From: Blasia pusilla
Lineage: Eukaryota
Direction: 5' to 3'
Assembly (NCBI GenBank): GCA_050084515.1
Contig: CM114271.1
Span: 23,188,001-23,252,000, forward strand
Length of the DNA: 64,000 bases
The stretch's first letter is position 1. Each line of letters starts with the position of its first letter. Shown piece by piece: positions 12,060 through 64,000 of this stretch. The notes below the pieces were generated by a model. It was not told the origin of the DNA, ran no database searches, and was given only the letters and a program-made list of their open reading frames with translations. A program made the translations under genes and the position numbers.

Positions 12060-13169
12060 GGCTGCCTCAGACCTTGGCAGCCTCTTCTTCCTGTCCCAGA
12101 AGTAAGCATGAGAACAGGTACCGTAACCTTTAGCTCTCCAGTGCTCGAAAAGAGAGTTCAACAAGCAATATGGCGATCGAGCAGCTGACGCTCTTCTGTA
12201 GAAGAGTTGAATTGAGTTATGTGTGCATTCCACTCAAATGTCTGAATTCTTCTTGAGCGCAATGGGGATTCACTTTTATTTGAATTTTCTTTGCGTCGAC
12301 TTTCAATGAGAGTTCTGATGGAACCTGAAAATGCCCATGTTGAGCTTTAGAGTTGATGTAATGTCTCCGGAGAGTTATGTTCACTCGAATGACATACGTC
12401 TGGAAATCCCAGCAGAAGTCGATCGGCCTGAAGATGATCGGATAAATCTCTGAGTCCGCGTGTGCAGGGTGGTTCACGGCTATGGAGTGTAATTAAAATT
12501 CTGCTGTTGGCAATCGAGCGATGGTCCGACTCAATCTATCCAGCGGCAGAAGACGTGCGCAATATGTTGGGAGTCAGATGAAGGAGATGGAAAGGCTCTA
12601 ACTAATCCCCATGGACAAGAAATCATTTCGTTCATTCTTTTGTCTCTCAAACTGCAACTTCGGTGACCACAATAGAACAGCCTTCCCGGATGTCTTTCAG
12701 GACCCTGTCATGGGGGTAAGATGAAAGACAAAATTTGGGTACGTGATTGATTTTCTCTACAATTGACCACATGAGAAAGGCATTCCCCGGTGTCTTCCAG
12801 GATGTGGGTGTCACCGTTTTGATTAGGAATGGGAACCAGGTTCATGTTGATGGAAGTAGCTGAATTCTTACAGCAGCGTACGGTGGCAACTCGGGCCTAT
12901 CGTCCGAATCAGTTAGATTTGTAGTATTTCACTGGCCTCCTTGGCTGCCGCAGGTCCTGAACGTTGTCACTTGCTTCGTTGCTGCAAACTTCGTAAATCG
13001 AAGTCCCTCGGCCCTCTTGAGTCCCCGTGGACAAGAGATCTCTTCCTTCATTCTTCTTCTTCTCTCTCTCTCTCTCTCTCTCTCTCTGATCTTCCGACTG
13101 ATCCCCAATTTCACACAATATCCCTGAAACCGATCTGTATCTTCGAACTCCTCGCTGTTTCCTTCTAAC

Positions 13170-13500
13170 CTCACTCTGTGTCATCCGAGTCGCAAGGGTA
13201 CACTACTTAATGAGTACAGTCTGTTGCATCCTCGGCACATGCGAGCGCGACCTCGGAATTCCTCGGCGTTTCCTCAGCACTCTGTGTCATCCGAAGCGCA
13301 TACGAGAGCGACCTCGGAATTCCTGCCTCAGGGTTCCTTCCACTCCCACTCTGTGCCATGCGAGAGCCACCTCCTGCGTTTCCTTCCTTCCGCTCTCAGT
13401 CTGTGCCATCCGAAGCGCACGCGGGAGCGCGACCTCGGAATTCCTTACCGTTTCCTTCCGCTCTCACTCTGCGCCATCCGAAGCGCATGCGAGAGCGGCC
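13170..13500 (+). repeat. Degenerate tandem repeat, roughly 55-60 bp unit (ctctgtgycatccgaagcgcatgcgagcgcgacctcggaattcc), about 5-6 copies
   Basis: Unit cores visible near 13175, 13225, 13280, 13350, 13400 and 13468; followed by (ggtt)n near 13583-13606. Confidence 0.8.
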
Positions 13501-14014
13501 GACCGTTCGAAAATCGCGGATGGAATTCCAGCAACCGCAGACGGACGGACCGACCGCCGGACACACGGACGGAGCACGCGATGGTTGGTTGGTTGGTTGG
13601 TTGGTTGCGCATACCGCCACTTCCCCCCCTGTCACAGGAATGCTGCTCGCGCGGGCCGCGCGGTCCCGACCATAACCGCCCCCACCATCGCTCGGCACTC
13701 ACATTTCTCCAGCTCCCCCACGCACGGCCTATAAGAGAAGCACACCCTATTGTGATCTCCCCACATCACCTCTTTACAATGCTAGCGTTGCCACTTTGCA
13801 GGGGATCATTTTTGAGATTTTAATTTTTTTAAAACTTTTACTTGCGCTTAGCATCTGAAATTTAATTTTTGGTTTGCATTTTGAAATCTATAATATCTTG
13901 AAGGGTGTAAACACGTGTATGTTAGACACGTGTCAATTGGGTAATAAGAAATTGTTTCCCATATTATCGGCAGCAAGATTTTTTTGAATTTGTGTGTATA
14001 TGGTTAGTCTTTCA

Positions 14015-15709: not shown

Positions 15710-17200
15710 TTGATTTTTAGGGTAAGAAATCGTCAAATCCTAAACCAGCTGCCTTGCCGCGGTCATAATCCTCGTTGTCTTCGCCATCCCCGTTGCCACT
15801 GTTAGCCACTTCCTCCGCCGCTAGTTATCGCACGCCGCTATTCTGGGCCACGTTCAGCCGCCAACACCATTCAAGGCCATGTCGGGCTGCCGCCGCCGGA
15901 CTTGGGTGAGTCCGTACGCGTTGTTGTCACTTTACACTCTCGACTTTGACAAGGTGACCTTTTCATTCATGGGGTCCTAGTTTTCTTTCCGCTTAGCTAT
16001 GTATTGAGGTTGTAGCTATGCGACGACGATCGAGTACGGTGTCATGCCGCAATGCGCCGCCAATTGCCGCGCCGTGCCGATCATAGCCGCACTGCACCGT
16101 CTCGATCATGGAGTCCACCATCATTGGGAGCAGAGTATGTATTGATGTTGAGGAAGAGGGTATGCTGCATCCCATCACCGAGTGTTGTTTCGTTTGTAGC
16201 CATTTTGTGCCGCACCATATTGCTGGATCTATACCGCATATTGAGGAGATTTGAGAATTATCAGTACCAGAGGAGTATGACTTACTAATTGGAGGAGTTT
16301 GTATAGTTGAGAAGTGACATCAAAATTTATTCAAGTTATCCATTCTGGCCTTTTTCCCTACACGTGTGAGGTAATTTTTGGGTATTTGGATAGTTATTTG
16401 GGGATATTGGGTTTCGTGCAGATGTTGAGAGCATCACTAATGTATGTGGTTTTTGGGACATAGATATGTGTGGAATGTCCAGAGTTGAGGGTATGTTCTA
16501 TCCTTGAGATGATAGAACAAAAGTTGATTTGCCACACCACGCCGCTTGAGAGGGAGTGTAGATTGAGTGCCGCATGTTTGGGTTGAGTGATTGAGGGATT
16601 ACTTATGAGATTGAGAGTGATCACGTGAGAGGGACACGAGGGTCATCACGGCGTCCTTTTGGGACTTTGAGAGGCGGGGTGGTGGACTTGAGAGTAGCTC
16701 TAGAGATTCTAAGGAGAGTCGCACGAGGTTTCGAGGGTCTCCATATGAGAGACCGCCTCGACCTCTTCCTGTGTCGTCATCATACGCGGGGGAGAACGTA
16801 GAGGAGTTTGTTAGTGTATCATCGCACACAGTGAGTGGTCTTGCAGCCTAGGACTACGAGATGGACGATCGGGGTAGAGGACGGCGTAGGTTTTTGGGTG
16901 CTAAAGGAACTATTGAGTTGCACAACTTCATTGCGGAGTTTATGAGTTGGTGTGATTCGCAAGAGGCCAAGAACTCTAGAGATTTCAACATGTTTACAAC
17001 ATGGAATGGAATATTCCAACACTTAGAGGAGGTATCCATGGACAATTTCCATGAGTTCTCTCAGGGATATGCCCATGAGATTAAGGCATGGACAGTCTAC
17101 TATAACCCACTCTATGTATCATGGACTAAGCCATTTCCAGATAAGGAGGAGGAGTTAGGAGAGGCTACTTCCTCTTCCACCAATGATATGTTGGGAGGGA
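15710..17200 (+). mobile_element. Gypsy family A 5' internal region and gag N-terminus (truncated)
   Basis: Inverted homolog of about 57170-58800. ORF 16861-17292 (FQHLEEVSMDNFHEFSQ..ELGEATSSST) matches ORF 57176-57358 (FQHLEGAPMDDYHEFSQ..ESGEATSSST). Confidence 0.85.
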
Positions 17201-19454
17201 TAACTCGAATTGGAGCAGTTGCATCTATGCAGAGTTGCAGACTAGCTACCAAGAGGTGCGGACGGAGAAGTTGCGTAGCATCCACTACTTAAAATTGGGC
17301 TCACATGGAGAGTGATGGATGGATGCTTACAGTGGTATTTTGATGTTGACTTCTTTTTCCAAGCTTGGAAAAAAGAAGGTTAATTTAGGCCCAAATATGG
17401 TCCACTTACTACTCTCTTCTAAATATTTCATGAATTTGAAAGCAAACAAAACAATGTCAAGAAGTTTTGAAGAGAAGAGGCGGATTCTGCTTTTTTTTTT
17501 TTAAGAGAGACTCTCCTCTCTCTCTCTCTCTCTTCCTCTCCTCTCTTCTCTTACTCTCTCCTCCCAGAATACTAGCCCCCGCCTGACGTGTAGGCACTGC
17601 TGGTCGTCGAGGCACCATCAAGGGTGTGTGTAGTGCCTTTGAGAATGTGAATGACTGTGGAACCTTGGCCTGCTGCCCATCGGTCCCCTCTTGTGGTTCA
17701 ATCTCAACCCCATGTCTCCATGGCTCGGGTACTCTTGCACCATCTCGAGTCACCACCGTAGTAGCCTAAACCTGAGCCGCACTATATATGAATCCCATAC
17801 TAGCGAGATCCTCACCCAGATCAGGGTAAGAGGTGGAAGTTGGAGTCACACTAGCTACTCTCGGCTCCGTGCCTTCCCTGAGCTGCATCATCGTCATGGC
17901 AGCAATCCTCTGCTCCAACTGATCGATGCGTGAGAGAAGCATTGGCTCTGGTGCTCCCGCTCCATCTCCTCTAGTTGGTGGTGGTCCTCTCCCACCACGT
18001 TCAGCAACACCTCCTCGGCCTCCTCCAAGACGACCGCCCCAAGGCCCTTGGCCTACCTCTCGACGTGCCTCTCGACGAAGGTCAAAACATCTATCCCTAG
18101 TGTGACCATATTTGTGGCAATAGTCACAATGATACTGTGGTGGGGCCAACCTCTATGGCTCTTGAGCAATCGGAGGTGCTCGTGGTCCTCTTCCATGCTA
18201 TGGGTAATCTCTCTACCTATGGGGCCCACCACATATCCAACAAGACATCATTGGTCCCTATTGGGCAACATACGTAGGCACGGGTCATTGCCTTACAGGC
18301 TCACGGTACCCGCCTTACTCTCTGGGCACACTGGCCTGCTCTCGTGGTACTGGTGCTCGCTGTGGCACCTGCGAGGCTACCGTCGCTCGTGGACATGTCG
18401 ACTCTCGAAAAAATCCAGTGGTCACTACCTACCCTCACTCATCTTAAGATCAATAAGCTCAGACAACTCGAAGACCACCTTAGATGTGAGTTCGCCATGT
18501 GAATAACGACTGCATCTTGAACTCTCTTCCGTAGTTCTCGGTCCAGAACCCTGTACCAATATGAATTGATTGCACCTCAGTCACTCCATAAATAGCAATG
18601 ATCAGCCTCCTCATGCGCGTGAATGCCTCTCTCAAACTCTCACCCGATCATTGCTAAAAATCCTGTAGAATCTTCATCTTGTCGGTGCGTACGCCCTGGT
18701 AGCTCTTCCCCAAATGTAGGAAGAATTCCACTTTGGGACTAAAGCTGGGTGGCCCTCTACCACCAGAGGTCTCGGCCACATCGCATGTATCACTGCTCTC
18801 CTCTCCATCTAGTCTCTGGGCTGATGGTGTGGGTCTCTCTCCTCTCACAATCCCATCATATGCCTCACAACCACAAGTGGATACATACGCCAATGGAGTC
18901 TAATACATCATCCAAGCATCAATCCACGAGTGGTCGGGAGGCATATGATAGGATTGTGAGAGGAGAGACGATGAGAGGATATATTGGACTCCAGTGTATG
19001 TATGCACTAGTGCTCGTGAGGCATATGATGTATGGAGGATGTATTGGAGTCCAATACATTCTCCAGGCATCAATCTCTACTGAATATAGGGATCGGAACT
19101 CCATGTAATCATCCATCGGAAGACCCTCCAAGTGCTGGAACAACCCCTTCCATGCCATGAAAGGGTTGAATCGTGTCGGGATCCGTATCTCCTGGAAGTC
19201 GCACCACGTGTCGAACTCCTAGATGAAGTCATCTAAGTCGATAATGCCCACTGCAGCCGAGGAACGATGTATGCCCCGATGGCTCATGTCGTCCATCTCC
19301 TGCCAAGTAACACTGCCTCTGTCTGCGATCTCATCACCAGACCGGCTATCTAGTGATGACGATCCAACCACGGATGGAAGTCGAGGTGTCTCCTTACTAA
19401 AAACCCCTCCATATCTCATCCCACTTCGTTGTCGTATAGTAAAATCATCCTGTA

Positions 19455-34849: not shown

Positions 34850-35350
34850 TGACCACAAATTTTGAGCTCCAATGTCAAAATTGCACATTGTTTCCTCAAC
34901 AACGTGCACGACTTCATCAAATTATCTTTTTTATCTGACCTTCGATTTGAAATTGGCGGCAACTACGGTGCAGCTCCACTGTCCATGCCAAAAGGTTCAA
35001 TAAAAAAAGAATGAGCTCCAAAGCTCTCTCTTCTTGGATATATCCTTTTCCTCTCCGAAGCTCCATGATAACATATGCTCACATGTCACTTGCTTGGGTC
35101 TTCACATGATATAGAGGTTCAAGGGCCACTTCCCAAAGTGTTAAGTCAACTCTATTCACAATGGTTACTTACAAAACAAAGTAAGTTTCTCTATATAGTT
35201 CCAAATGAGCCGAAATGAAGGGGAAACTGGCTCTCTCAAGCTCTCGAGGGCCTGGCCTTAACACTCCATCCTCAAACTCTTTAGGTTGTCCTCAAATATC
35301 CTTGAAGGGGCTCTACCATAAGCTCGTCGATCTATTCTAAAATACGTGAC
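34850..35350 (-). repeat. Decayed, internally deleted copy of family A LTR-like sequence
   Basis: 34860-34920 resembles 58835-58890, and 35160-35230 resembles 59640-59708, in the same orientation. Confidence 0.6.
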
Positions 35351-37554: not shown

Positions 37555-40500
37555 CTATGCCTTGGAAACATTTTGTGACTTCAAGATAGAATATTCCTTC
37601 TCGCCGGTATAAGGTGGTAGAATTGTGTATTCCCAAGTGCGAGAATGGAGAACTTTATCAATGAGAGTGTCATCCACGTCAAATCCAACCCTTAAGATTT
37701 CCCAAGGGATACCCAAATATGGTGATTTCTTCCCAGCAAAGAAGGTCATTGTGGGCCTGCAAAAACATTATAAAACAAGTGAGAAAGGTTATTTGGATTT
37801 CAATGTTTAAACAATTTTTATTGACACATGGACGTATATAAAGCATATGTACGTCCATGTGTCCTACGTACCAAGATCCATAGGGATTGCTATTGATAAT
37901 TTCATAAACAAGCTAGACAAGTAAATTAACATATAGAGTCATAAAGGGAAACATTCACATTTCATTCAAGGGTTCCATTCTAAACCTATTGACCACCCTT
38001 TGACTCAATCATGTTGCTTAATAATTTTTTTGCCAAATGCCATGAATGCATAGTAGGGACATAATCCCCCCCAAAAAATGACTACCATGAAGAGGATCAA
38101 AGATTTTTCTAGGCAACGCACTCCTTACTTTCTAATTTATTTTCGCTGAACCACAATTATCTCCAAGTATTTCACTAATAAAATGATCTCTTTCTTGAAT
38201 TCAAAACCAACATTAACTTTTACAACTTCAAAATATGCAGCGTGGAATAAATTTGGGCACTTACTGTGCGTTATCTGAAACGATGAAATGTTGGAGATCA
38301 TCTGCTTCCCTTGCTACAATGAGAAAGCCATATCCTCTCGGAATGGACAATACTTGACCTTCTACAAAATGGATGTCTAGAATTTGCACATTGTTGAAGG
38401 GCTCCACCAACCATACATGGCCTTGACCTTTGATAATATAAATCAGCAAGTTGGCATTTGTGACAAATGCAGGGCCGTACAATGAATTCTGCAAAAAAAA
38501 AAAAACAAACATCCAAACTTTTCCATGTCACTTTGGGAATTCCGCAAATGTTGACATTCACTATACTTATGCCCATTGACATGGAGAACCCCTCCAAAAG
38601 GCTCTTTGTAAGGAATGTATCTTGAGAATTGGTTAGGTGATTTGATAATCATGGTGCTAGATTTAATATGGTCAATCCCATAAAATTCTTCCATGATGTA
38701 AACTTGGTCGTGGAAGGTTTATTTATAAAATAGAAATATTATAAAAAAGTAGGAAAATTTTGACACCATAAATAAAAAAAGATAGCTATTAAGAACATAA
38801 AAATTTGTTCTTATGAACGGATATGAAATATGAAAAGGCATATAGACATAGGCAACTTGAAGGTTTGGAAATGAAATATTTTACTCAATATCTAGAGGAG
38901 ACACTAATTTTTAAATCGATTTTAATGACATAGTAGGAATATAATACGCTACATACCATATTAAGGAAACAAAGAAAGAACTAATAAGGGAATTAAATCT
39001 TCATTCAAACTTTAAGGCAATCCCATAATCATAGACAACATATAACCTAAAGGAATTTCAATACCTCAAATCTTCACTAAGTAGTTACAAAGTATTCACC
39101 TTCAAATAAAACATGGAAAATAAAATTCAAAGTAAATGGGGACATGTACATAAAAGGAGAAAATCATGAAAATACGCTAAATAAAACGGTATGAGAGGGC
39201 CATGCACGTCTATCATATCAAAAGCACGTGTAAAAGTGTATGTAAAGATTTACCTCTCTTTGATAAATGAGCTCTACTCCAAGATTGAATTGGCCCAACA
39301 TCTTGTATTTTTCTTCCTCTGAAGCAACAATAGTCCATTGCTTGCCTCCTCCAGGTATATACACATCGGGCTCTCTTGTGAATGTCTTGAAAACATAGTC
39401 CCCTTTGATGGAGTAGGCCTCGGGATTGTTGAGATATATTTTCATTTCCAACTTCAAGAAGTAGTTCACATTTTGTTGATGAATGAGTCTTTTCGCCATT
39501 CCTTTCTCAATTGCCCATGCATCACCAAGGGTTTGTTCATCAAATCCTAGGTACATGCTACCAGACCCAATAATTGGTAGTACCTACAAAAGTTTCCGAG
39601 CCATCCATTATGTTATGACGTAAAAACTAATCATGTGAAATTGAAGGAAACGAAAATTGCGAAAAAATTCAACACTAAGAGTTAGGAGTTACTATATCAT
39701 TACTTTTTTATTACATATGTACTGAAATAATTTCTTGTGAACTCATACGAAAAGGATTTCATTTTTTCTCTAGCTTTATTTGAGTTTGTTTTGAAAAACT
39801 TTACCGTGATAATCCCGCGTTTGAGAGAATTCGATGTTTCACCAAACGCCACAAATGTGAAGTCCGGAGACCCCTTAGAAACATCGTCGTTGTAAAACCA
39901 GGCTACGGCCTCCTTAGGGATTAGAAAAGCATCTCCTTCTTCAAGAGGAACAAGTTCCACCCAAGTTCCACTTGGATAAACCAATCCCCACTTTGCCGAA
40001 CCTGCATGACCCTTCACACCATTAGGGAGATTTTTTAAATTTTTTTAATGAAAACAGGGATAAGAGATTTCATTAGGGAAAGAAAAAAAATCGATTGAAA
40101 GAATGGAAGTTAAACAAAAACAATATCACACAGTGCAAAGGAGAGGGGGACTTGACTAGGAATATATGAACTGATAAATTTATCATTACTCTCGTGATAC
40201 CTAAGAAGGGACACCTAACTTACCACACCTTTACATAATAATTTCATGGTTTTGTACATGGCAAAGTCTCCTCATCTCTTTCGATGCTTTCTTTACTTAT
40301 GCATGGACGGGAATTTCATGCTTGGTTCTAGCAAGAATTGGGTTCACGGGAGCTCGTGCAAACCCTCGATACGGCTCTCAAGGTATTAGGGGTGTCAAAA
40401 ACCATCCCGGAGCTAGCTTCTCATCAGCCAGCTTGGGTCGATGAGTACATGGAAAATTCGGTACATCCACACTCCTTTTTTAAATCCGGAATGTCACGCT

Positions 40501-41781
40501 TGAAACCATTCCCAAGTATGTCATGGTAGTAGGGCCAATTGTCTACTCTCTAATCTAATACCACTCGTGTGTGGCTGCATGCTGCCCACACATTCCTGGG
40601 TGTCGTGAGAAGAACAGGTGAGGTTTGCAAATGGGAACTTCTGCTCACAAGAGTGCGCATTGGTAAGAGGCGGAAGTCGATAATCTGACTAGGCTCCACT
40701 GGTACTTAAATCCGTGTTCTTAGTTTCCAGTCATAAGCATGAGTTGCTGCATATATTGGGGAGTGCATTACAAGCAGTAGCTCTGTGCTCCTCGAAGTTC
40801 TCTGCTTACGCTCGGTGAAGAGCATATGCAAGGAAAGCCTAAAATGTAACTCGATGCTCTGCAGTCAAGCTCTCCCGCCGACCTCATCCGTAACTAGGCA
40901 TGCCCTATTACGTCTTCCCCTCTACAACTGTCGAACCCTCACTCACTCACTCATTCATTTTGACAAGGAAAGAGGCAACGGTTGACATACATATGCTGGG
41001 CTTAGTCCGTCACAATTGATCGGTGGTAGGTCTGCGTAGAAGGTTTGAGAAAACTCTGATCAAGTCCGAGTTTGCAGGATTTCCCCTGATAATCAAGTCT
41101 AGGCACTCTACAATGGCTCACAATCTGGTGGAACTCTTCCCGAGTCTTCAACTGGAATATGAAGGAGACTCGAAAGGAGAGGTTGTTGGAGCAGCAACGA
41201 CAACAGCATGTAATAAGAATTCCTCCTTCATGGCCTCCTCCACGTGATTTCATTCTTCTAATCCACTCGTCCAGGAAATTCGATTGTCAAGAATTTAGTA
41301 GCGGAACTCTGGGAGTCAACGAAATGAAAGTAGAGAACAAGGAGGACGACAAGCGTGTGACGTGATGTAAACATTAAGGACAAGGCTGCCTAGTAGTTTG
41401 AGATTGGAGTGAAAAGGAAATCAAAATATGCAAAATCCTCTGAGAGAAGTGTTTGGCGAACATCTCCTCGAGTTTCGATGCCCATGTACCTTCCACAACG
41501 TAAGCCACAAGATCGGTGTCGAAGTGGGCCGGCAGAAACACGCTGTTGCCTCCCACCGTAACTTTTATGCCCGCCAGATCGCTGCCTCTTCCATCCCACA
41601 TGCCTAATTTGCCTCCATTGTTCTGGTAGAGAGTCCTGGGATAGTCAGGTCTGAGGTTGATCCCCTCGAGTTGAGACGCAGAGGCCTTGCGGCCGAAGGT
41701 AAGCGAATGTGTCACCGAAAAGAAAGTCAGCTGCAAAAGCAGCACGAAGTGGATCACATGAACATTCCCTCCCCCTGCCAT
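37555..41781 (-). CDS. Secreted bicupin, 11S globulin/legumin-like protein, 414 aa; exons 41781-41490, 40001-39805, 39583-39254, 38488-38265, 37756-37555
   Basis: GT-AG introns with consistent phases (1245 nt CDS). Hydrophobic N-terminal signal. Cupin 1: FLPAHFDTDLVAYVVEGSAKWG..LEEGDAFLIPKEAVAWFYN. Cupin 2: GPAFVTNANLLIYIIKGQG..EGQVLSIPRGY. C-terminal FFAGKKSPYLGIPWEILRVGF. Confidence 0.9.
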
Positions 41782-42529
41782 GGTCGCTCCGCTGTGCAAA
41801 ATACTCGAAAGCGTACAGATCTCACTCTTAGACTAGATCATTTCCATCTCTCTATCTCTCAGATTTTATGATACAGGACTATGATGTGCTCTTCCATATG
41901 CGTGAGTGCTACTCTGGAAATGGCAGCCAACTGCAATTGATCAGTGAGCCAATACCTATTCTTATAACAGGCATTCTGTACGATGTGGGAAAATTGATGC
42001 AGTTCTTCGCAGTGCGATGGTTCTTACAAGTGGAGTCGAATTTGAATTTGCCAACCCATAACCAGTTAAGAGGCATACTGTTAAATCAAGAATCCAGCTC
42101 TTCTGCCCGAGTTTTGCTCATCGGAGATGTCTAGAATGACAAACCCTTTCTAGATCTCTCTTCTTCGAAACGTGAGCGTGTGTATGGATTCTTGCAGGGT
42201 CATGGCAGATCTGTGTGGTCAGGGTTTAGGATATAGAAAATCTATCCCCCACTGATTTTAGCCATTTGAGCTGTAGCATAGACTATTGGATGTCACGAAG
42301 TTAATCCACTCACACATTAAGGTGCTAAAGATACGGAGAGGAATCTGGTTTGTTTGCCAGGCAGGCAGTTCGTCCAGCCCTGATACCGATGAGCTTTAAT
42401 TCGCAGGAAATGCAAGCCAATTTTTGGTCACCTTTAAGTTCCTTGGATTGGTTGTTGCTGAGGGAAACTCCACCCACGTAGGACCTTGTTTGGCAATGCG
42501 AAAAAAGGGTTTGTCCTCTGGCAACCGAA

Positions 42530-49129: not shown

Positions 49130-49456
49130 GCGCCAAGTCACCAAGGAGAGACCTTGGGAAGAGGGATGCCACGTCTTTTAGGATAGATCGGCGAGATAGA
49201 GCAACTTTCAGGATACTCGAAGAAAACCTTAGGAGGTCAAGGATGATGTGGTGAGACTATGGGTAATCTGAGAGAGTAGGTTTCCCCATTGTTTGGCTTA
49301 TTTAATTGGAGCTATGTTGAAAAACTTACTATTTTGGGCAAGTTACCATTTTGAGTATAGTTGGCTTTCCACTTTTGGAAGTGGAAAGCTAGGAGATGAC
49401 CTACAAGCATATGTTACCGTGGAGAGAGCTTTAGAGAGGGAAGGAGGTATACCTCA

Positions 49457-49547
<91 letters not shown>

Positions 49548-50240
49548 AGAGCTCATTCTCTTTTTGTTGAACCTAGCCTCTAGACATGAGACGGTGGAGC
49601 TATGGTCCCCCTTGCCTTGTGTGTGTAACCCAAGCCTCTCACTAGGAGAGTGGGTTTGGTTTGACATGAGAGAGAAATAGTTTTGTGTACCATGGAGACT
49701 TCATTGTAGTTGAGAGTATTACTTGATTTACAAAGAGAGAATGCATGAGTGAGAGGGCTACAATGAAAGAGCTCGCTGATTGCTCGTTTTTGTTGCAGTT
49801 TGGGGACCATGTTCCCTGCTTCATGGCTCATGGGAGTGCTCACACGAGCAAGTGCTATTGGTTTTTGTGCTTTGTTATACCGATTTTTAGTACGGGAGAG
49901 TGACGTGCGCAAGCACTGCTCAATTTTTGGTAGAGATTGAGTATGGGAGTGGGTTGCTCAATGTTGGTGCTCTTGGGAGCACCATGTAGGTCTCACGTTT
50001 TTATTTTTATAGGTGTGAGATTTTTTTTGGGAGTAATAAGCCTGGAAGCGCTGACAAAATTTGTGTAGGAATGAAGATTGAAGATTTGTACGACAGTCAT
50101 CGTCAATTTTTTATGGAAGGTCTAATGGAAAAACCAATTTGATACCATTGTAGATCAGAAATTTGTGCAGACCGTTGAAGAAATGGTGCAAAATTTTGAG
50201 TTTGGAGCACAAAGTTGTGGATGATCTTGCAAGCTGCCAT
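49130..50240 (+). repeat. Family A LTR-like copy, opposite orientation to 58800-59790
   Basis: Collinear reverse-complement matches: 49176-49202 vs 59762-59790, 49543-49675 vs 59368-59495, 50150-50230 vs 58815-58895. Confidence 0.8.
49459..49542 (+). repeat. (GA)42 microsatellite
   Basis: Perfect dinucleotide run counted directly. Confidence 0.97.
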
Positions 50241-51868
50241 GGCCATTGTGTGAGTTGAATTTTGAAATTGCTTTGGTTACTTGTGTGGGCGTAGAAACAA
50301 AATGAAGATATTTTATCTGAGGGGATAGGACAATGGCACATGTCTTGTGAGGTAGAAGTTGAGTGAAAAACTTAAGACCCCTAGCTTGAGGGCACGTTGA
50401 GAGCAAGAATCCAAGTTGGGGCAGATTTAGAAGATAGACCTGAATTTTGCGGGGATTTTTTGAGTAAAAGAGTTGGCAACATCGTTAACCATCAACTGCC
50501 CAAGTGCTGTCAGCTTAGTCTGTGGTTCAACACGCCTTGACGTCCGCACGTAGTCCTAGCCGTGTCCGTGATTGTCGCGTCCTCTGTATGGGCGAGACTT
50601 ACATATGGAACTTGAGCCGGCCTCAATCCCCGTTGTAGTTGCTGCCACTCACACCAGCTACCCACCTTCCACATCTGACTTGCTGCGACACTATAGCCGC
50701 TGCAAGGCACTCCCGGCGAGCCGTGCCTTGACTGTTTACGGACCCCTTTGGCGCCTACACGCGGTCAGACTATTGTCCGATTCACATCGGAACGATATGC
50801 CTTCGTTTGGAGGCATATCCTTGGAATATGCTAACTCTGTTCCCGCTCCACACAAGGTGGGGCGGAACAGAGCTCAAGCCTGATTGAAACGGAGGGCTCT
50901 CTTTCCTCCATTTTGACAAAAAAAGAGGGTTGCGGATAATCTTAGGATGAACGGGCACTCACACATAAGATTTCCATTTTGTGATAGTCTAAGTATTCTA
51001 GAGAGCTCCATTGCCCTTTTTAGAAGGCGAGTTACATAAAATAGTAGTTGTGAGAGTATATTAGACTAAGATAGTCAAATCGCCACATTTTATTCGTAGA
51101 GTCAAAATGACCATAATGAGAAGATCTTGAAACCCATTTAAATTTTTTTTGGATATGTGTCTGCAATATATATTAAAATCTTATATATTTCCGCGTAGAG
51201 TCATTTGTACCATTCAATGAGGATTTGGCTTATATGAAATTGTTTCTATATGCTCTAGATACAAGAAATATCTGCCTTGTCGTGCACATACACATCGCTA
51301 CACAACATACATTGCTATCACCGAACACACACACAAACATGCACGATCCCATGCTAATTCCTGACATCCAAACAACGAGACAAGAAGTACTAAAATATCT
51401 CCAATTAAAGTAAGATCCAATATCTCTCTACACCATCTCACACCATAGCTCTTAAAGGTGTGCACTCTCTCTCATGTCAAACCAAACTCACTCTCCTTAT
51501 GAGAGGCTTGGGTTATACTCACAAGGCAAGGGACCATAGCTTTGCCACTTCATGCCAAGAGGTTCAACAAAGACAGAATGAGCTCTCAAGCTCTCTCTCT
51601 CCTTGAGGTATATCCCTCCCCTCCCCCATGCTAACTCATGGCATCCAGACAACGAGACAAGAAGTACTAAAATATCTCCTATTGCCCCCCTAGTTGGTGG
51701 TTAGGTCCCTCTAACTCCACATAGCCATCTATCCCTACCTACCATGACATACATCTCTCAGATGCTAAGAGCAAGAAGGCCGGATGCTCATGTGGCCCCA
51801 TCGTTAGTCGCCTTCCTGTCATCCATGTCACAGAAAAATTCGGAATTGAAACCTACCTAGTATCTCCT

Positions 51869-52619: not shown

Positions 52620-53988
52620 GCCATCGAGCTCCAATCGCATCTCGCTGACTCGGGCATGGATTATGACTCAACCCATCTGCATCTTGATTGAGCATTCCTG
52701 GTCTATGTACCACCTGAAAATCATACTCTTACAACAACAGAGCCCATCTCGCAAGCTTCCCCGTAAGCTTGTCGGACTCCATCAAGCACTTTAGTGGTTG
52801 ATGATCAGTGATGAAGGTAAAGGGATTGCCGAATAACTAACACCTGAAATGCGCGACAGCCCACACTGCAACCAAGAACTCACCCTCATACGAGCTGTAC
52901 TTCGTGTCTGTAGCGATGTTCGAGCAGCTAGCGTAAGCCACCACAAACTCTGTACCCTCATCATCATGTTGGGTGAGCACCGCTCCAAGCCCCAACATGC
53001 TCCAATCTGTGTGCAACTGGAAAGGACGCCCCCTCATCGGACTCCTCAAGATGGGCGCGGACGTCAACCTATCCTTGAGCAACCGAAATGCTTTCTCTTG
53101 CTCATCCCCCCAATGCCACTCGTGATCCACCTTGGTCAGCAAGGTTAGCGGCTTCGCAATCAAACTGAATCCCTTGACGTACCGCCGATAGAAGTTCGCC
53201 AATCCCATGAATGCGCGAACACGGCTCACATCTGTAGGGCGTGGAATGCGTGAGATAGCCTCTACCTTTGTCTGCTGAACACCAAGGCCCCCTCGGTATA
53301 TCGTATGACCCAAGTACTCAATCTGGTCGTAGAAGAACTTGCACTTGCCAGGATGTAGCTTTAGCCCATGTTATTGCAATCGTCAAAACACCTCCTCTAG
53401 ATGTCGCTCATGCTCCTCAACCGTGGCGCTAAAGACTACGATGTAATCAATATAACACCTAGCAAAATCCAAATGAGCCAAGATCCTATCCATGACCCTC
53501 TGAAACTCAACCGGGGCGTTCTTTAACCCAAATGGTAAGAACGGCCACTGGTACAAACAATCCTTCCCGTGAGGATCGATGCCCCTAAATGCCGTCTTCT
53601 GCCTGTCCTCCAATGTGATAGGCAGCTGATGGTATCCGGCTCGCAAATCCAATGAATTGAAAACCTTTGCACACATCCGCCTATCCGTCCAAGTGCCATG
53701 GACATCCTTCTTGGCGGGCATGACAGTGGCAGATGGATACTCCCCATGCAACATCTCCACTAGTCCTGCTCCAACCAAGTCCTGGCTCCTACTCTGAATC
53801 AGAGCCCTGTCCATATCATTGTGCCTATAGGGCCGTCGAAAGATTGGCGTATCACTCGACAACTCAATGCGGATCCCTGGTCCCTTCAACGTACCCAAAT
53901 CCTCCATGCTAAACGCAAAGCAGCTCCTATAACTCCTGAGGAATTGATGTATTCGGCGCCGCTCTCCTCCTCTAAACTTAGGGCCCAT
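52620..53988 (-). pseudogene. Gypsy reverse transcriptase and RNase H
   Basis: LDLRAGYHQ, KTAF, LPFGLKNAP, CYIDYIVVFS (YxDD decayed), FMGLANFYRRYV, LHTDWS..LGAVLTQ, YSSYEGEFL, QDADGLS. Confidence 0.95.
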
Positions 53989-54359
53989 ATCTGGCTCCCA
54001 AGTCTCTATCGTGACTATGGTAGGACTCTCCGGCGCGGATATCAGTGGTTGCTATGGTGCAACCCCGTCTCAAACAACAATACTTGACCGCTCTCTTACA
54101 GCCAACTGTAAACTCTGATCTCCTCTACATGCAGTGCCCGGAACCACGCTCGATGTTGTGGCTATCATCTCCAGGCGTACCTGCAAAACATCCCAAGAAG
54201 TCCAAGGGTGTCTCTCTTGATCTCCCCTAGTGGACCTTCTCGGGTCTTGGCCCCAGCCACTGCCTCCACCGTCTTGGTAGGAATGGGGCTCACCAACACA
54301 ACTGGTGTGATCTGTCGCGATCTCATCCGACGCTGCTCAGCCACTCCCAAGCTAAAGAT

Positions 54360-55290
54360 CCATGTCAAGCAGTTCAGGTCCATCGCCTAACCCAAGACAT
54401 GGCATCGTGATGCCTCTGATACTGATGGTACTGTCGTCACTCTTGTGGGAAATCCCATCGCCCGCTCTCTCTCGTCGGCGTTGGGCTCCACCAACCTCTG
54501 AACCTGGTCATCCCAAACCAAGCCAGGACCAGCCTCCTTGTATGCATAGGAAGCTGGAAAACTCACAAATGTGGGAAAGGTTGCCCGCGGCTTGCCTGCC
54601 CTATTGACCACAGTCAACGGTGGTCGATCATCATGCCTCATTGCGTATGCGCGACGACCTGGATCCAAAATGGAATCCACTAACAAATGGGAGGGGCGCT
54701 CCACTCTCGCATACACCCTCCGTAACACCGCATGGGGCACCAAGTTGGTCCACCATAGACGCCGGTGATGGGCTCTAGAACCTACACTCGCCGCATCCAA
54801 GAACAGTACTGGGCCGATCCAGGCACACACCTGATGAGCACTTGTCACCACCGGTGACCTGGAGTCTCTTAAGATCGGCACATTCTCCAGAATGTAGGTT
54901 GGCGAACGAGACAAGTGCTCCTGCAAGTGCCGTAAGATCCTCAACATCTCCCAAAACAACCTGCAGCCTCGTCCAACACTCGATTGGCCCTAACATGGCC
55001 AACCGGCAATGACCAAATCAATGGTGCCTAACCGCTCTAAGTCCTGCGCCCCCAACAACGAAATATCCCTCGGTAGGGAAATCTGGTATCCCTATACTGT
55101 GGACGTAGACATGTTGGGAAAACGTAGGCATAACTGCGCTACATGTCGTAGTGAGATGCACCTCGCAACATCATCACTCTCCACATACAGGTACTGTTGT
55201 ACTCGCACTCTTGCCTGCAAAACAACAGCTAACCCGGTGCTAATCCCTCCAAAGAGATCTAACACTCAAATACCCTCCTCCGGGGTACAC
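54360..55290 (-). pseudogene. DNMT3/DRM-like C5 cytosine DNA methyltransferase domain inside the retrotransposon polyprotein
   Basis: One reading frame with 4 stops: motif I VLDLFGGI (55242-55265), II YLYVESD, III PRDISLL, IV IDLVIAGWPC*G (PC at 54993-54998), V LFWEMLRIL, VI YILENV, VII LDAASV, VIII AHHRRLWWTNL, IX EPNADERERAMGFP, X RCHVLG*AMDL. Confidence 0.93.
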
Positions 55291-55664
55291 CACACAATGG
55301 GTGTGGTATCCAAGGGTGTCATCGTAGCACTCCCTGCTACCTCGGGTTCCTCAGACCCATCATGCTCCGGTGCAAACGCCTCGCTCCACGCGGTTTGCAC
55401 ATGCTCATCTGCCAATCGTCACAGCTCCTCAGTCGAGCCCCACGGCGGCACCTCTCCTCCACATAATGATGCGGTTACCATAACACTCCTCTCCATAGAA
55501 ATGTCAGGAACGGGAGTATCCTCTGCATGGACATGTCCCTCAATCAAATCACTAGGTCAAGTGATGGCACTGCTAAATTCTGCAAAGTTCGCCATCTCTC
55601 CTGGCCGTTGCTCGATCACTACACATGTGAATCAAACGGGTAATGAGCTAAGGCACCCATCACT

Positions 55665-56027
55665 TCACTGCCATCTTGGTCTATAGCATGCTAACTCTTC
55701 CCAGTAATCCCCGGAAAATCCCATCGGGTATAACACTGCTCCACCAACCAAGATGTCGTAGGACTCTATATAAGTCACTATCGCCTTGGCTCGCACCACG
55801 GACTCATCTGTAGGATGTCCCGGGCGAATCCTCACCACGACCTCCTGTCGGGTGATATACTCCGTGGTACTCGCTCCACCCAAGGATGTCTGTATCCGGA
55901 ATGGACAACGCTCCACATCGGCTCTCGTCAAGCCCAATCCTCTGAATGACGCTTTCCCCAACATCAGGGGTTGCACTCTTGAATCCAACAAGACGTGCTG
56001 CAGACTAAAAGCTCTACCTCCGGACAA
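55665..56027 (-). pseudogene. Retrotransposon aspartic protease-like domain
   Basis: VLLDSRVQPLMLG (LDSG-like) ... YDILVG. Confidence 0.75.
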
Positions 56028-56036
56028 CGTGAAAGA

Positions 56037-57720
56037 CTAGGGAAGCCTAGTTCGTTTCCTGGCTCCCCCTTGTTGTGGATCCAACTCTGCGGCTGCCCCA
56101 CGCGTCACAACTGCGGTAGCCTCCATCTGGGCAACCCGGCACATCCAACCAAGATCCTCCATATCTCCTGGCTGCTCCATATGATGTCGATGCCACGGAT
56201 CCAGCGTCGGTAATCTCAATGCCATAGTGGCAATCTGCTCATGTAGCTGATGTATCTGAGCACCCATCCTAGCCTCACGCCCGGCATCTCCCTCCACGCA
56301 TCTAGGTGGTAGGAGCCTACCTCCTCCACGGGCAGCTCCACCACCCTGTCGGGCAAGTCCAGCTCCTCGTCCACCAACGGGACCACCTGGTGCATAATCT
56401 CTAGGCCCACCCGGACCGGCTACTCGCTCTGGTGCCCTCTCTCGCCCTCGGTCCGGATGTAACTCAGAATGTAAACTGAAATACCTGGCGCGTGTATGAC
56501 CATACCTCTGACAATAGTCACACTGATAACCTCCTGGTGTAGCACCATCTCCTCCTCCATGCTGAGGCACACGTCCATGACCATGACGAGTGCATTCGTG
56601 CTGATGATGGGCTCCACCACATGACCAACAAGTAATAGTAGGCTGCTGTTGAGCCGCATATGAAGGCGCAGGTCTCTATGGTACGGCCTCCTGATACCCT
56701 CCTTGAGCTCGTGGTGCCACAGTCGACCTATCTTGGAGTCCACGTTCTTTGCCACGTAGTCTGCATAATCGTGGATCGCTCTTGCCAGAACCCATGGTGG
56801 CTACGCTCTCCTCCGCCATGTTGCGCTCAATGTTCTCGGCGGTCCTAAAAACATCTCTCAACATAGGGGAGGTGTTCATAAGAAGCACCCCCTCCCGCAC
56901 CCGTGTCCACAGGGTCCGGTCCAGCATCGCATACTATGACTGGATAGCCTGAGCCTCTATCACCCCCTGAGTGACGTTGATCAATCGGCGCAAGCAAGTG
57001 TAAGCCTCACGCAAAATCTCATCCGGGCGCCTCTCGAAGTCGTGGATGCTATGCAACTTCTCCGTCCGTACCCCCTGGTAGCTCACCCTCAACTCAGCAA
57101 AGAACTCAACCACATGGTTGAACGTGGGACAAACCTGACTAGACGGTGCAACTACTCCCGTGCGAGTGACCCCTCCTAAAATGTCACAGTGGAAGAGGAA
57201 GTAGCCTCTCCTGACTCTTCCTTCTCATCTAGGAACGGCTCCGTCCATGACACATAATATGGGTCATAGTAGAGCCTCCATACCTCGATCTCACTTGCAT
57301 ATCTCTGAGAGAACTCATGGTAATCGTCCATGGGCGCCCCCTCTAAATGCTGGAACATACCGTTCCATGTTGTAAACGGGTTGTACTCTCTAGAGTTCCT
57401 GGCCCGTTGGGAGTCGCACTAACTCCTAAACTTTGCTATGAAATCGTGCAACTCTATCGTGCCTACTGCACCTGAAAACCTATGCGGTCCTCTACCCCGA
57501 TCGTCCATCTCGTACGCCCAACTGGTAGGACCACTCACAATGTATGGCGATGTGCTCAAAAAATCCTCTACACGCTCCCCCTTGTCTAAAGATGACACAG
57601 AAGGAGATCGAGGTGGTCTCTCATATGGAGACCCTCGAAACCTCGCACCACTCTGGGTAAACCCTCCAGAGCTACTCTCAGGTCCACTACCTCACCTCTC
57701 AAAATCCTGAAAGGATGCCA
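56037..57720 (-). pseudogene. Gag (capsid-like region, CCHC knuckle, Gly/Arg-rich tail)
   Basis: CDYCQRYGHTRARY knuckle remnant; homologous to the gag pieces at 16.6-17.2 kb, 17.8-19.4 kb and 63.8-64.0 kb. Confidence 0.8.
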
Positions 57721-60018
57721 TGATGGCCCTCATGCCCCTCTCACACGATCATTCTCAACCTCGCGAGTAATCCCTCAATCACTCATCCCAAACATGCAGC
57801 ACTCCATCTACACTCTCCCTCCCCGAGACGGGTAACGTGCGGCAACAAGCGGCGTGGTGCGGTAAATCGACCAGGCTATCATCTCATCGACAACCTACCC
57901 TCAACTCCGGACATCCCACACACGTCTATGTACCCTAAACCACATACATAAATGATGCTCTCAGCATCCACACACCCAATATCCCCAAATAAACTACCCA
58001 AATCCCATAATCCCTCACGTGCAGGGTAAAGGACCAGAATGGGTAACCTGAACACATGTCGATGTCCCTCCTCAGCAATTGCAAATCTCGACCCCAACTC
58101 GGTCATGGAGACAAATCCTCCAATCAGAAAGTCACACTCCTCCCGTACTGACACTGCTTAAAACTCCTTGATGGATAGTGCAGTTCCAGTGGAAAGGTGC
58201 GGCGTTGCAGGCGGCACGGAACGACTACAAACGGCACGGCCCTCGATGGTGGGATGCGGCACTCGGCGGCATACCCTCCTCAATCAACAATAAACCCACA
58301 CTCTGCACCACAATGACGGTGCGGCTCCGCAATCGAGAGGGTGCAGTGCGGCCACGAGCGGCACGACGCGGCAATTGGCGGCCGGTTGCGGCTACAGGCG
58401 TCACGACACGGTACTCAATCGTCGTCGAGCGGCTACCAATCACAACATAGCAGCATGAAATCAAAACTCAAACACCATAACCGGAGGTCATCTACCATCA
58501 CTGGTTGATGACAAAACTGCGATAATGGTGGCGACCAAACCAAAGTACGTGGTGGCGGTGCAAGTGAGAGAATCAACGGTGGTCGTGGGAGATCCTCCAC
58601 TTTGTAATGGCGGCAATAGCAACCAAAGGGTGGACAACGTCCGAATGCAGCTCTGAGCAACGCTGGCCAACTGCAAAGGCCAACGGTAGCTGGAGGACGG
58701 TGGACCATTGACGATGACAGTTGACCATTGATTGGTGATGGTGACTATGATGGCGACGGCCGGTTTAGGGTTGAACAATTTAACCCTAAAAATCACCTAG
58801 CAATGGAAAATTTTCAAGATTGAGCATAACTTTTTACTCGCAACTCCAAATTGTGCACCGTTTGTTGCACAACGTGCACAGATTTATGATCTACAACAAT
58901 GTCAAAAAATATTTGGAATTGGGCATTCCAATAAAACTGACAGGGACTGTTATAAAGCCCAGTGTCTCTTTCTCCTACACAAAATTTGGCAGCGCTTCCG
59001 GGCTGATTTCTCCCAACCAAAATATAAGACCTGTAAAAATACAAATCAGCAAGCTACATGGTACTCTTGAGAGCACCGGTATGGGGCAACATGTCCCCAT
59101 AATTAATCTCTATCAGAAATGGGCAGCGCTTCCGCGCGCCACTCTTCCACACGAAAAATCGGCAAATGCAAAGAACAATCAAAGCAGCCCTTGCTCCGGT
59201 GAGCACTCCCATGAGCCGCTGAACGGGGAACACGGTCCCCAACCTGCAAAAACAGCGAGTGACCAGCGAGCTCCCCCATGAAGCTTTCTCACTCTCTCAT
59301 TCTCTCTTTGTAAAGTAAAATCCAATCTCTCTCTACACCATCTCACACCATAGCTCTCAAAGGTGTGCACTCTCTCTCATGTCAAACCAAACCCACTCTC
59401 CTTATGAGAGGCTTGGGTTACACTCACAAGGCAAGGGACCATAGTTCCGCCGCCTCATGCCAAGAGGTTCAACAAAGAGAGAATGAGCTCTCAAGCTCTC
59501 TCTCCTTGAGGTATATCCCTCCCCTCTCCCAAGCTCTTTCCATGGTAACCTATTCTCCCAAGTCACCTCCTTGGCTCTTGACCTGATGTAGGAGGTCAAG
59601 GGCCACTTGAAAAAAATAAAATTTGATCATATATTCAAAATGGTACTTACCTAAAATAGTAAGTTCCTCAATATGGCTCCAAATGAGCCGAAACGAAGGG
59701 GAAACCTGCACGTCATCATCGACCTATTGAGCGTGTCCTCCACTAATCACGAAAGCGCTCTACTAGATCTCACCGATCTATCCTAAAAGATGTGATAGCC
59801 TACATGGAGAGGACTACCAATGTTTAAGCAAACAGTGTACTATCCGACTCACAAAGAGCTATGACCTCAACCAAGACCAAGAAACAATTTCCCAATATGG
59901 TTTTTTAATACGATTCCAATCCTTCATGTTGCTTCATATGCTTTGTTTGAGGGTTTTTTATGTGATGATGTTGATCACTATGAATTGTGTTGTCTTGATT
60001 TAAGGTCATTCCTCTCTT

Positions 60019-62033: not shown

Positions 62034-64000
62034 TGTCACATCTGAGTAGCCGATAGGCCGAGATCTATCGTGGATAGGGCGTAGGAGCTAGCGGACTATC
62101 TTGAGTGCAACTTTGTCCCACAGTGTCGGATGAGGTTGAGGATAGGTCCATTGTGTCAGAACGCGTCGTTTCGGCGACTTTCATGTTGAGGTCTTTTACA
62201 GTACCGGGTGACTTGTGGACAGGTCACTGCCCCTGGTAACTGTCTTGCTTGAGTTACCAAGGAAGGGCTATTTTAGGGAAGAGCCTTTTGGCTCTTCCCA
62301 ACCTATATAAGAGAGGAAGATGGCTTTCCTAAGCCATCTTTCTCATGTTGGGCCGTTGGAGCACCTCCCTTGTATGTGTGTGAGCTAGGACTAGGGTGCT
62401 AGCGTCCGGATTCCTTGATAGCACAGGGTGGACGAGGCTCGATATGCCGATGTAGATTGAGGAGTGGAGTTTTAGGCCGGGTGTGCCGTTTTTACTACTC
62501 GTTATTTTTACATGAGAAAGATGTTAGGGGGCTGGTGGGAATTCTTTGTTTGCAGGTAGGCAAACGAGTTGCCTTGGTCGGGAGCCCCTGGAGACGTGTG
62601 TGTGACGTTGTGTGTCATTTTTTCTGTTCGGAAGGCCGTGGGCGGAAGCGCTGTCCATTTTTCTCAGATTTTTCTGGTGAGGATTGATGGGGGACAACAG
62701 CCAAGTGTAGCGTGTGGTGGGGCGTCGGGTGTACGCAAGTAAGGGTGTCGAGAGAGAAGGAAAGGGCAGGTTTGGGTCTTGCAGCCGCAGGGGGCTGTCA
62801 AGTAAAGACGGCTAGGTTAGGTCGCAAAGTTTAGGGTTAGGGCGCGGACGGCTGGGCGCGGACGGGCTGGGCGCGTGACGGCGTGATGGGCGCGTGGCAG
62901 GGCGCGGACGCCTCCCCCTGCATTTAGGGCCCAAGGGGCCCGCATAGGGCCGCGGTCCAAGTTTTTTCCCCCTCTCCGACGTGGTAGCACCGACCATAGT
63001 CGGTCGGACGATTAGCTTGTCGATACGTGGTTGGCAGGACAGACGAGGTTAGTCGGACGAACGTGAGTTGAGATTTTCCGGACATGAGTGGGAGCCGACC
63101 AGGCTTAGTTACGTTACATACCGCGCGTGGGGATAGACAGAGGGGTTTGCGCGACATGATGTTTTGGGGTGCGACAGGGTTGCGAGAGTTTACGATGGAG
63201 GGGCAGTGTGCATGATGCCGACGGGTTGTCGCATCTGTTGACGGGAGGATCGACGTGTTGGTCGAGGGGAGTGTTATGTGGCGGAGATTTTCATATCATG
63301 TGGAGGAGTGCATATTGACGGTGAAGCAGGCTGGAGGGCGTAATCAGGTTACCCTTTCGAGTCCCTTTTCCCGCACTTGTTGTGTGTGATTGAGAGTGCT
63401 GGGTATCGGGTAGTAGCTGGTGCTAGATGGGTGCAATGATGGTGACGAGTGTAGATTCTTTTCATGTGTAGCATGTTGGTGGATATACGGCGGTTGCCAA
63501 GTAGGGGTCGCGTGTATGACCCGAGAGAGTGTCGCTAGGTTAGATGAGTCAGTTGGGAGGCTCATGGTGAGCCCGAGTGTTGAGCGTGCGTGATGCCGGG
63601 TATGTCATCACGGGATTGACGTTAGCATAGGTGAGCTAGTGAGGTGTGTGGGAGACTCTCGGTGAGTCTGAGTGCTTGAGCGGGTGAGACAGGGTTTGTC
63701 ATCACGGCGTTCTTCCAGGGTTCGGAAGAACGGGGTAGTGCGAGCAGTGGTAGTGGTGTGACATGGAGTGGAGTGAGATACCGAGGGGTTACTAGTGAGG
63801 AGCTCCCTCGACATCCATCCGTGACTGGATCGACATCACTGGACACTGGGTCTGGTGACGAGATCACCGACAGAGACAGTAGTACTTGGCAGGAGATGGA
63901 CGACATGGGCCATCGGGGCATGCGTCGTTTCTCGGGTGCTGTGGGCACCATCGACTTACATGATTTCATCCAGGAGTTCGACACATGGTGCGACTTCCAG
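62034..64000 (+). mobile_element. 5' end of a Gypsy family B element (LTR starting TG, leader, gag N-terminus), continuing beyond the window
   Basis: Starts tgtcaca at 62034. LTR matches the 7.9 kb and 24 kb copies. Ends in WQEMDDMGHRGMRRFSGAVGTIDLHDFIQEFDTWCDFQ. Confidence 0.85.

Follow-up and report, generated by a model that had tools for sequence, protein, structure and literature searches.

A decayed Ty3/Gypsy-type retroelement with a DNMT3-like cytosine methyltransferase and split direct repeats in Blasia pusilla

The element at the locus

The stretch analyzed here, called the window, comprises 64,000 nucleotides of the Blasia pusilla genome (GenBank assembly GCA_050084515.1, contig CM114271.1, positions 23,188,001 to 23,252,000 of the forward strand). 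On its minus strand, at 59797-51278, lies one old and inactivated insertion of a Ty3/Gypsy-type retroelement family, 8,520 bp long, in which the protease (PR), a DNMT3-like C5 cytosine methyltransferase (DNMT), the reverse transcriptase (RT), the RNase H (RH) and a remnant of the integrase (INT) follow each other in the pol order, with gag upstream. The element joins a kind known from an alga since 2018 (KnitGypsy-Dnmt3), with relatives in liverwort and moss genomes. Its features, in its own reading direction, are the following.

59798-59801, minus strand: target-site duplication AGGC (minus-strand reading) on the 5' side, with the identical four bases at 51274-51277 on the 3' side
59797-59311, minus strand: repeat A1, 487 nt; A2 still preserves a counterpart of its inner 227 nt (59535-59311)
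57691-56040 (about), minus strand: gag remnant with two CCHC-type knuckles, from frame translations; split over two frames by stops and a frameshift, and resembling the N-terminal parts of Marchantia gag-PR-DNMT proteins
56036-55665, minus strand: remnant of the aspartic protease, sharing the frame of the methyltransferase and aligning by eye with the protease of relatives
55310-54330, minus strand: DNMT3-like C5 cytosine methyltransferase (PF00145), with four in-frame stops and a 7-residue gap
54054-54052, minus strand: TAG at the boundary of the gag-PR-DNMT and RT-RH-INT frames, with CAA CCA after it; from this sequence context, a candidate leaky stop
54051-53383, minus strand: reverse transcriptase remnant (Pfam RVT_1, E = 1.5e-25 at 53673-53299, only model positions 66-205)
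53112-52723, minus strand: RNase H (Pfam RT_RNaseH, E = 3.3e-27; RT_RNaseH_2, E = 9.7e-27)
52728-52307, minus strand: integrase remnant, recognizable in translation only beyond the catalytic core
52009-51875, minus strand: PHD finger closing the pol frame at its C-terminus (Pfam PF00628, E = 6.4e-11)
51691-51685, minus strand: G-rich purine tract AGGGGGG immediately before B1, a candidate plus-strand primer site; the same type of tract precedes B1 in the related copies L009, L045 and L055
51683-51625, minus strand: repeat B1, 91.5% identical to 51348-51406 and 3'-truncated, as judged from the full B2 and from relatives
51632-51406, minus strand: repeat A2, a 5'-truncated copy of A1, from the direct-repeat match
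51406-51278, minus strand: repeat B2, complete, 129 nt, ending in ...GCACGACA at the 3' end of the element (51278), an end motif common to L009, L045, L055 and L071

The methyltransferase domain is the only one in the window. Translation of the minus strand over 55310-54330 gives its motifs in a single frame and in canonical order (VLDLFGGI, DLVIAGWPC, ENV, HRRLWWTNL, ERERAMGFP and VLG-stop-AMD), and motifs I, IV (PC), VI (ENV) and VIII are all present. An initial annotation, made from the sequence alone, had placed motifs I-X in this order in one frame between the protease and the RT, with only motifs V-X visible among the open reading frames (ORFs). All of this is borne out by the translation, by the protease remnant upstream and the RT remnant downstream, and by ORF 54387-54989, which starts past motif IV and covers only the subsequent part of the domain. 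The check proposed at the time, a PF00145 search with the stops read through as X, returned a match (E = 3.2e-5) that narrowly passes the curated cut-off of 22 bits, at 23.9 bits; the scores of intact relatives are 35-51 bits.

This copy is a dead fossil without function, as the initial annotation had also stated. Four in-frame stops (one TGA and three TAG) interrupt the methyltransferase, one of them following the PC of motif IV, and a 7-residue in-frame gap affects the catalytic loop just past this motif; with that stop and with the loop residues gone, the window copy itself cannot be active. From the start of the protease to the end of the methyltransferase the in-frame stops number eight, and an additional TGA at 54072-54070 lies upstream of the candidate leaky TAG. 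A frameshift near 54232-54238 is private to this copy, RNA reads of other copies carrying insertions there. In the RT, the YxDD box is altered and an internal segment is deleted at about 53670, the point at which reads from other copies continue with unlike sequence. Both the zinc-binding and the core domains of the integrase are lost: Pfam searches in all frames of the window element gave no match to rve or Integrase_H2C2, both of which relatives have. Likewise, Pfam gave no protease match in the window copy, while relatives match Asp_protease_2 in that part.

The ends of the element are less conventional. The initial annotation had described a Gypsy retrotransposon of the long terminal repeat (LTR) class; the Gypsy-type polyprotein stands, but this is not a textbook LTR element, as its ends do not carry two identical LTRs and its direct repeats are split. 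The inner part of A1 (59311-59535) is 93.4% identical to A2 (51406-51632), and a single deletion in the window copy took the end of B1 together with the first ~260 nt of A2. The 5' end at 59797 was fixed from two other partial copies in the window, the start motif of relatives and the target duplication. In the related copies L045 and L055, the element opens with A1 and closes with B1-A2-B2, and homology between independent copies starts exactly at the A1 start and stops at the B2 end. The same A1...B1-A2-B2 layout is found in L009, from the subfamily closest to the window, where copies also start alike at the A1 start. The termini of the relatives run from TGTCATG... to ...CACGACA (TG..CA ends), and all four copies in which both ends were examined are flanked by 4-bp target duplications, namely GGTC (L045), CCAA (L055), TTTT (L071) and AGGC (window). 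At the internal B1|A2 junction, the two ends of the element meet head to tail, separated by 2 nt, and form a near palindrome similar to the junction of a circle; this B1|A2 junction reads CACGACA-NN-TGTCATG in three of the five copies examined (L045, L055, L046, L071 and L009) and is mutated in the other two.

Two other delimitations were rejected. A 227-bp LTR formed by 59311-59535 and 51406-51632 is incompatible with the layout of the relatives and with the true ends at 59797 and 51278, which carry the target duplication. DIRS1-type inverted terminal repeats (58973-59705 against 50070-49278) were also discarded, the inverted match being the 5' part of another truncated copy. No terminal repeats were seen in L031, whose contig spans only ~1 kb on either side of the ORFs, so their absence there says nothing. 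In L013 and L010 (about 6225-6475), an inverted piece of the 3' region of the family replaces A1, representing either a different 5' end or a rearrangement.

Other debris of the same or sister families is scattered in the window. Further gag, integrase and 3'-end fragments are located at 16046-17310 (plus strand), 17658-19428 (minus strand), 63734-63999 (plus strand) and 7528-7773 (plus strand) with 8472-8622; their identity to the main copy is 30-77% for protein or 76-92% for DNA, and none of them has a methyltransferase part. The integrase-like fragment at 7528-7773 resembles the integrase remnant of the main copy. In addition, the 5' terminal regions of two more copies (the A repeat and what follows it) are found at 49170-50070 (plus orientation of the element) and 34984-35349 (minus strand), 68-85% identical to 58973-59797, the former carrying a pure (GA)42 array at 49459-49543.

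A DNMT3-type domain conserved across a family of retroelements

The initial annotation had called the methyltransferase DNMT3-like, with its motifs in canonical order, and comparison with solved structures agrees. The closest structure to the window domain is DNMT3A (5e-8), with DNMT3C and DNMT3B next and DRM2 at merely 0.02. The DNMT3A alignment is collinear over query positions 13-224 and 280-319, so that motifs I-X are unpermuted, unlike in DRM. A profile built from 14 family domains sharpens this picture, with DNMT3A at 4e-23, DNMT3B at 5e-21, DNMT3C at 6e-21 and a tobacco DRM at 2e-14, followed by weaker matches to Arabidopsis DRM2 (1.6e-11), DNMT2 (4e-7) and HaeIII and HhaI (about 1e-6); DNMT1 is absent among the matches listed for this profile. 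The DRM chains match only via the half carrying motifs I-V, which is sited at their C-terminus. The AlphaFold model of an intact relative, P0191, reached a predicted local distance difference test (pLDDT) of 92.5 and a predicted template modelling score (pTM) of 0.90; in a Foldseek search with this model, the matches listed, down to rank 50, were all DNMT3A/B/C catalytic domains (top E = 2.3e-19, target-normalized TM score 0.84). In the upstream frame of the relatives, Pfam finds only the protease and PF00145, and no PWWP, ADD or other reader domain. This is a DNMT3-type catalytic domain rather than a host-type DNMT3 protein, a placement made by profile and fold.

The domain belongs to a large family. 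A search aimed at longer proteins retrieved 42 relatives, including Calypogeia fissa (64% identity), many from Marchantia polymorpha (52-61%) and Sphagnum, and a search among proteins of near length added 220 more, extending the list to Riccia sorocarpa and Marchantia paleacea. Cluster representatives, searched exhaustively, gave 1,284 matches at E <= 1e-3 and, at the stricter E <= 1e-30, 164; many of the matches are contained in proteins of 1,000-3,400 residues, and one is annotated as 'pol [Scenedesmus sp. PABB004]'. Dozens of annotated Marchantia polymorpha proteins belong to the family. The closest named relatives of the window domain come from liverworts and mosses, and Klebsormidium is absent among the named relatives from these protein searches. 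On metagenome contigs, 315 of 599 candidate stretches encode relatives, from which 80 loci were kept; among 36 loci checked, the domain was uninterrupted in four and carried stops or frameshifts in the other 32.

Two Marchantia proteins (P0003 and P0006) consist of gag-PR-DNMT and end past the domain, whereas P0056 combines CCHC-PR-DNMT-RT-RH-INT in one ORF. L031, a locus from the metagenome contigs, is intact, with a first ORF for gag-PR-DNMT (1369 aa), one TAG, and a second ORF for RT-RH-INT-PHD (1047 aa) in the same frame. P0056, L031 and L045 follow the Ty3/Gypsy pol order with the methyltransferase inserted after the protease, and a PHD finger occupies the equivalent place in L031, L045, L009 and P0032. 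At the boundary, the frame is interrupted in L031 and L032 by a lone TAG with CAG TTA behind it; in L003 the sequence is TAA CAA CCC, and in the window CAA CCA comes after the TAG.

A second arrangement exists. Among 104 gathered proteins of at least 900 residues with the domain, it follows the protease in 34, lies between RNase H and integrase in 66, and stands alone in four. The group with the RNase H-integrase slot comes almost entirely from metagenome contigs, plus the Scenedesmus 'pol'. In a FastTree reconstruction of 179 domain sequences, restricted to family members, after 126 of 312 proteins had been set aside for their partial domains along with 7 duplicates, the two slot arrangements need only one change among 112 labelled tips. 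The window domain groups with Calypogeia, Marchantia and moss-like metagenome sequences in a clade of 21 rows that has a local support of 100.

Conservation within the family is strong at the catalytic positions. In alignments of 14 and 40 members, the motif I glycines, PC, ENV and the motif VIII arginines are invariant or at least 90% conserved. Codon alignments of the window domain with 27 loci gave a nonsynonymous divergence (dN) of 0.26-0.51, with the synonymous divergence (dS) saturated in 20 of the 27 comparisons; in the remaining seven, dS was 2.1-6.3 and their ratio (omega) 0.06-0.19, values that are conservative because the decay of the window copy after its insertion inflates dN. This dN/dS comparison across copies, which had been proposed as a check, points to purifying selection on the methyltransferase domain.

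The family is also present in many copies, and transcribed in sense, in the host itself. From the host, two runs of DNA and two of stranded RNA were aligned to 53300-56100 at a likeness of at least 80%. The two DNA runs placed 55,551 and 9,684 contig pieces on this region, with all methyltransferase bins covered, although in run X3 the depth over the methyltransferase was roughly half that of the RT bins. The RNA depth was 32-134 for pairs with the first mate on the plus strand, against 0-14 for the opposite orientation, as expected for minus-strand sense transcripts under the usual stranded library type. At most one RNA read per run (0-1) was at least 99% alike to the window copy and almost all were below 95%, so it is other copies of the family that are expressed. 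At about half of its 40 best-supported private differences, the window copy has T or A against C or G in the family, and three of the four stops in its methyltransferase domain are TAG; this pattern would fit the deamination of methylated cytosines. Sister copies thus do carry the domain, both in the host DNA and RNA reads and in intact polyproteins elsewhere, and the methyltransferase is a conserved, selected part of the family rather than an accident of the window copy.

Transposon debris makes up most of the window. Near the element, a single host gene is evident, a multi-exon gene at ~37560-41830 (minus strand) for a signal-peptide-bearing cupin (Pfam Cupin_1, E = 4.5e-8), similar to streptophyte glycinin-like cupins; a search with an exon of this gene returned no homolog. 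The suggestion of the initial annotation that the genome looks like that of a land plant is therefore likely, the cupin neighbor pointing to a streptophyte and the closest named relatives of the domain being liverworts and mosses. ORFs at ~4236-6323 (plus strand) resemble gag and integrase of a Ty1/Copia-type element, as judged by eye from translations. Three overlapping open frames of 153-231 residues at 13102-13823 (plus strand) have repetitive, low-complexity translations, and at score 80 Tandem Repeats Finder listed no array in this stretch.

Alternative explanations and a model for the live family

We are highly confident in the identity of the domain as a DNMT3-like methyltransferase and in its membership of the family. 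The explanation that fits best overall, which we consider likely, is that of a dead insertion of a gag-PR-DNMT / stop / RT-RH-INT-PHD family whose functional steps can be proposed from its architecture. A very different account would be the one-off capture of a host DNMT3 fragment, or the insertion of another element, the domain never having served the retroelement. The single DNMT domain in the window, despite the several gag and integrase fragments of the family, and the heavy decay of the copy would be in line with such an event. However, intact ORFs from many independent copies and species have the domain at this very position and in this frame, thousands of contig pieces from the host DNA together cover it from end to end, dS is saturated against the dN given above, and neither a repeat nor a target duplication brackets the domain itself, so a capture of this kind is extremely improbable. 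Equally improbable is domestication of the locus, with a DNMT of retroelement origin now working for the plant as a host gene. Although some relatives are publicly annotated as 'DNA (cytosine-5-)-methyltransferase' and the family is transcribed, the window copy has its eight in-frame stops between the protease and the end of the domain, it has terminal repeats and a target duplication and is one of thousands of copies, and 32 of the 36 related loci checked are themselves interrupted.

The function of the domain deserves more caution, and several points weigh against the explanation that we prefer, which includes the proposal of a catalytic methyltransferase that acts on the DNA of its own element. 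The Pfam score of the window copy barely exceeds the cut-off. For 283 pairs of closely related copies (dS 0.1-0.3), omega has a median of 0.49; this is expected where most divergence is the neutral decay of dead insertions and is in itself no sign of constraint. The stop before the RT is a likely leaky one by its sequence context, and self-methylation is a hypothesis. Membership of the same family as KnitGypsy-Dnmt3 is argued from shared architecture and a one-line figure legend, and the passages on the yeast assay of its domain report no de novo methylation, in an experiment that the authors call inconclusive (PMC5890265). The same result would suit a domain kept for another role, such as methylation of RNA (the genomic RNA or the primer), action on host chromatin in trans, or non-catalytic DNA binding or oligomerization in the manner of DNMT3L; RNA methylation is raised for another class in the same paper (PMC5890265). 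Gag-like abundance, which would follow from placement before the stop, also suits a structural or RNA-handling task. In contrast, the catalytic motifs are invariant or nearly so in both family alignments, while DNMT3L-like dead paralogs lose them, and the fold and the closest relatives are those of the DNA-acting DNMT3A/B/C, the match to DNMT2 being far weaker. We therefore regard another role as rather unlikely, though it is much the most serious of the alternatives.

For the preferred reading, we infer from sequence that the methyltransferase of the family functions catalytically. In live copies, the position of the domain ahead of the stop would tie its synthesis to that of each Gag-PR molecule, and it would enter the particle at Gag stoichiometry. 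There, or in the pre-integration complex, it may methylate the nascent cDNA of the element or its insertion site; this step is tentative, and we put its chances somewhat short of even. The TAG at the frame boundary would be read through to yield RT-RH-INT-PHD. As the chromodomains of chromoviruses presumably do, the PHD finger attached to the integrase probably recognizes histone tails and thereby directs where the element inserts.

The TG..CA ends and the 4-bp duplications make the integration of the integrase type, and the split repeats are unexplained by textbook LTR replication. In our working model, the cDNA would have the form (B-A)-internal-(B-A), since the purine tract precedes B, and would then become a two-repeat circle. 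The integrase would open this circle at one palindromic ...CACGACA-NN-TGTCATG... B|A junction within a repeat, giving A-internal-B-A-B with TG..CA ends; some retroviral integrases do cleave palindromic circle junctions. In its broadest form, the idea would be that of an old group of integrase-bearing retroelements spanning the green lineage, from chlorophytes to bryophytes, which combines a permuted two-repeat circle with a packaged de novo methyltransferase that writes its own methylation at or before integration. We consider this unlikely as a whole, but if true, such a family would be alive, in the sense of transcribed, in land plants, with relatives in the model Marchantia.

As to novelty, we found no description of such elements in a liverwort, moss or other land plant in the literature covered, subscription journals and supplements lying outside the search. 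The presence of the family in land plants is thus apparently unreported, although a DNMT survey table may already list such elements, and a passage of a later text (PMC12344493) and one of a preprint (10.64898/2026.05.21.726589) both speak of 'streptophytes' for them, the 2018 paper being cited for this in one of the two passages and no source being given in the other. The initial annotation had considered the domain non-standard for land-plant LTR elements; the family is, however, already present, unnamed, in annotated bryophyte genomes, and the window copy is a member and not the first. The leaky stop, the target duplication, the junction palindrome and the two slots are structural details beyond the 2018 description in its passages on the algal element (PMC5890265). 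A transposon with its own de novo methyltransferase goes against expectation, DNA methylation being the main weapon of the host on transposons. To our knowledge, nobody since 2018 has shown what the enzyme does for the element. The widespread and conserved architecture in bryophytes moves this question to organisms with routine methylomes, mutants and transformation, and the combination of split repeats with integrase-type ends adds a mechanistic puzzle of replication.

Comparison with known systems

The family domain shares its catalytic fold and motif order with the host DNMT3A/B/C, from which it differs by being embedded in a polyprotein without PWWP or ADD. The companion domain of plant DNMT3 mentioned in PMC12344493 has no counterpart beside the family domain by Pfam. 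In contrast to the family domain, plant DRM is circularly permuted, and the match between them is limited to the C-terminal half of DRM.

Leaky stops are known from the gag-pol of murine leukemia virus and from tobacco mosaic virus, whose context is UAG CAR YYA. The TAG CAG TTA of L031 and L032 and the TAG CAA CCA of the window would fit this tobacco mosaic virus-type context. The likeness to murine leukemia virus lies in the lone in-frame TAG between the frames, but here the protease and the methyltransferase sit before the stop. Chromoviruses are Ty3/Gypsy elements with a chromodomain on the integrase, presumably for targeting. They resemble the present family in having a histone-reader-type domain at the integrase C-terminus, which is a PHD finger here and a chromodomain there; a limited full-text search, which was not a survey, found no description of a PHD finger on the integrase of an LTR element.

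DIRS elements use a tyrosine recombinase by class definition, and those of the PAT/Ngaro type combine it with split direct repeats and no target duplication. Their A1-internal-B1 A2 B2 layout is that of the present family, whereas the integrase, the TG..CA ends and the 4-bp duplications set the family apart. A B-A-B wording is used for the repeats of split-repeat DIRS elements in the Fig. 1 legend of PMC5890265. Among these elements, SymbioDIRS-Dnmt3 of Symbiodinium also has a retroelement-borne DNMT3-type domain and split direct repeats; in the passages devoted to it, the domain is active on CG in yeast, self-methylation of the cDNA is proposed, and the case is treated as an independent acquisition (PMC5890265). 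It is nevertheless a DIRS element; the present family, by comparison, encodes a DDE integrase, ends in TG..CA and makes 4-bp target duplications.

The closest known system is KnitGypsy-Dnmt3 from the charophyte Klebsormidium nitens (de Mendoza 2018, PMC5890265), and the precedent cited by the initial annotation, of DNMT-bearing retrotransposons including one in Klebsormidium, exists. As far as its text and legends describe it, this element shares with the present family the Gypsy domain set, a non-rearranged DNMT3-type domain in the polyprotein, and DIRS-like repeats, stated in the Fig. 4c legend to be 'the same as that of a DIRS retrotransposon' and matching A1...B1-A2-B2 (PMC5890265). Its copies are intronless and under purifying selection, with Ka/Ks < 0.2 (PMC5890265), comparable with the saturated dS against a dN of 0.26-0.51 found here. 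In contrast, its copies are few and its acquisition was placed in 'the K. nitens lineage' (PMC5890265), whereas the family to which the window element belongs is high-copy and widespread, with its nearest named relatives in liverworts and mosses.

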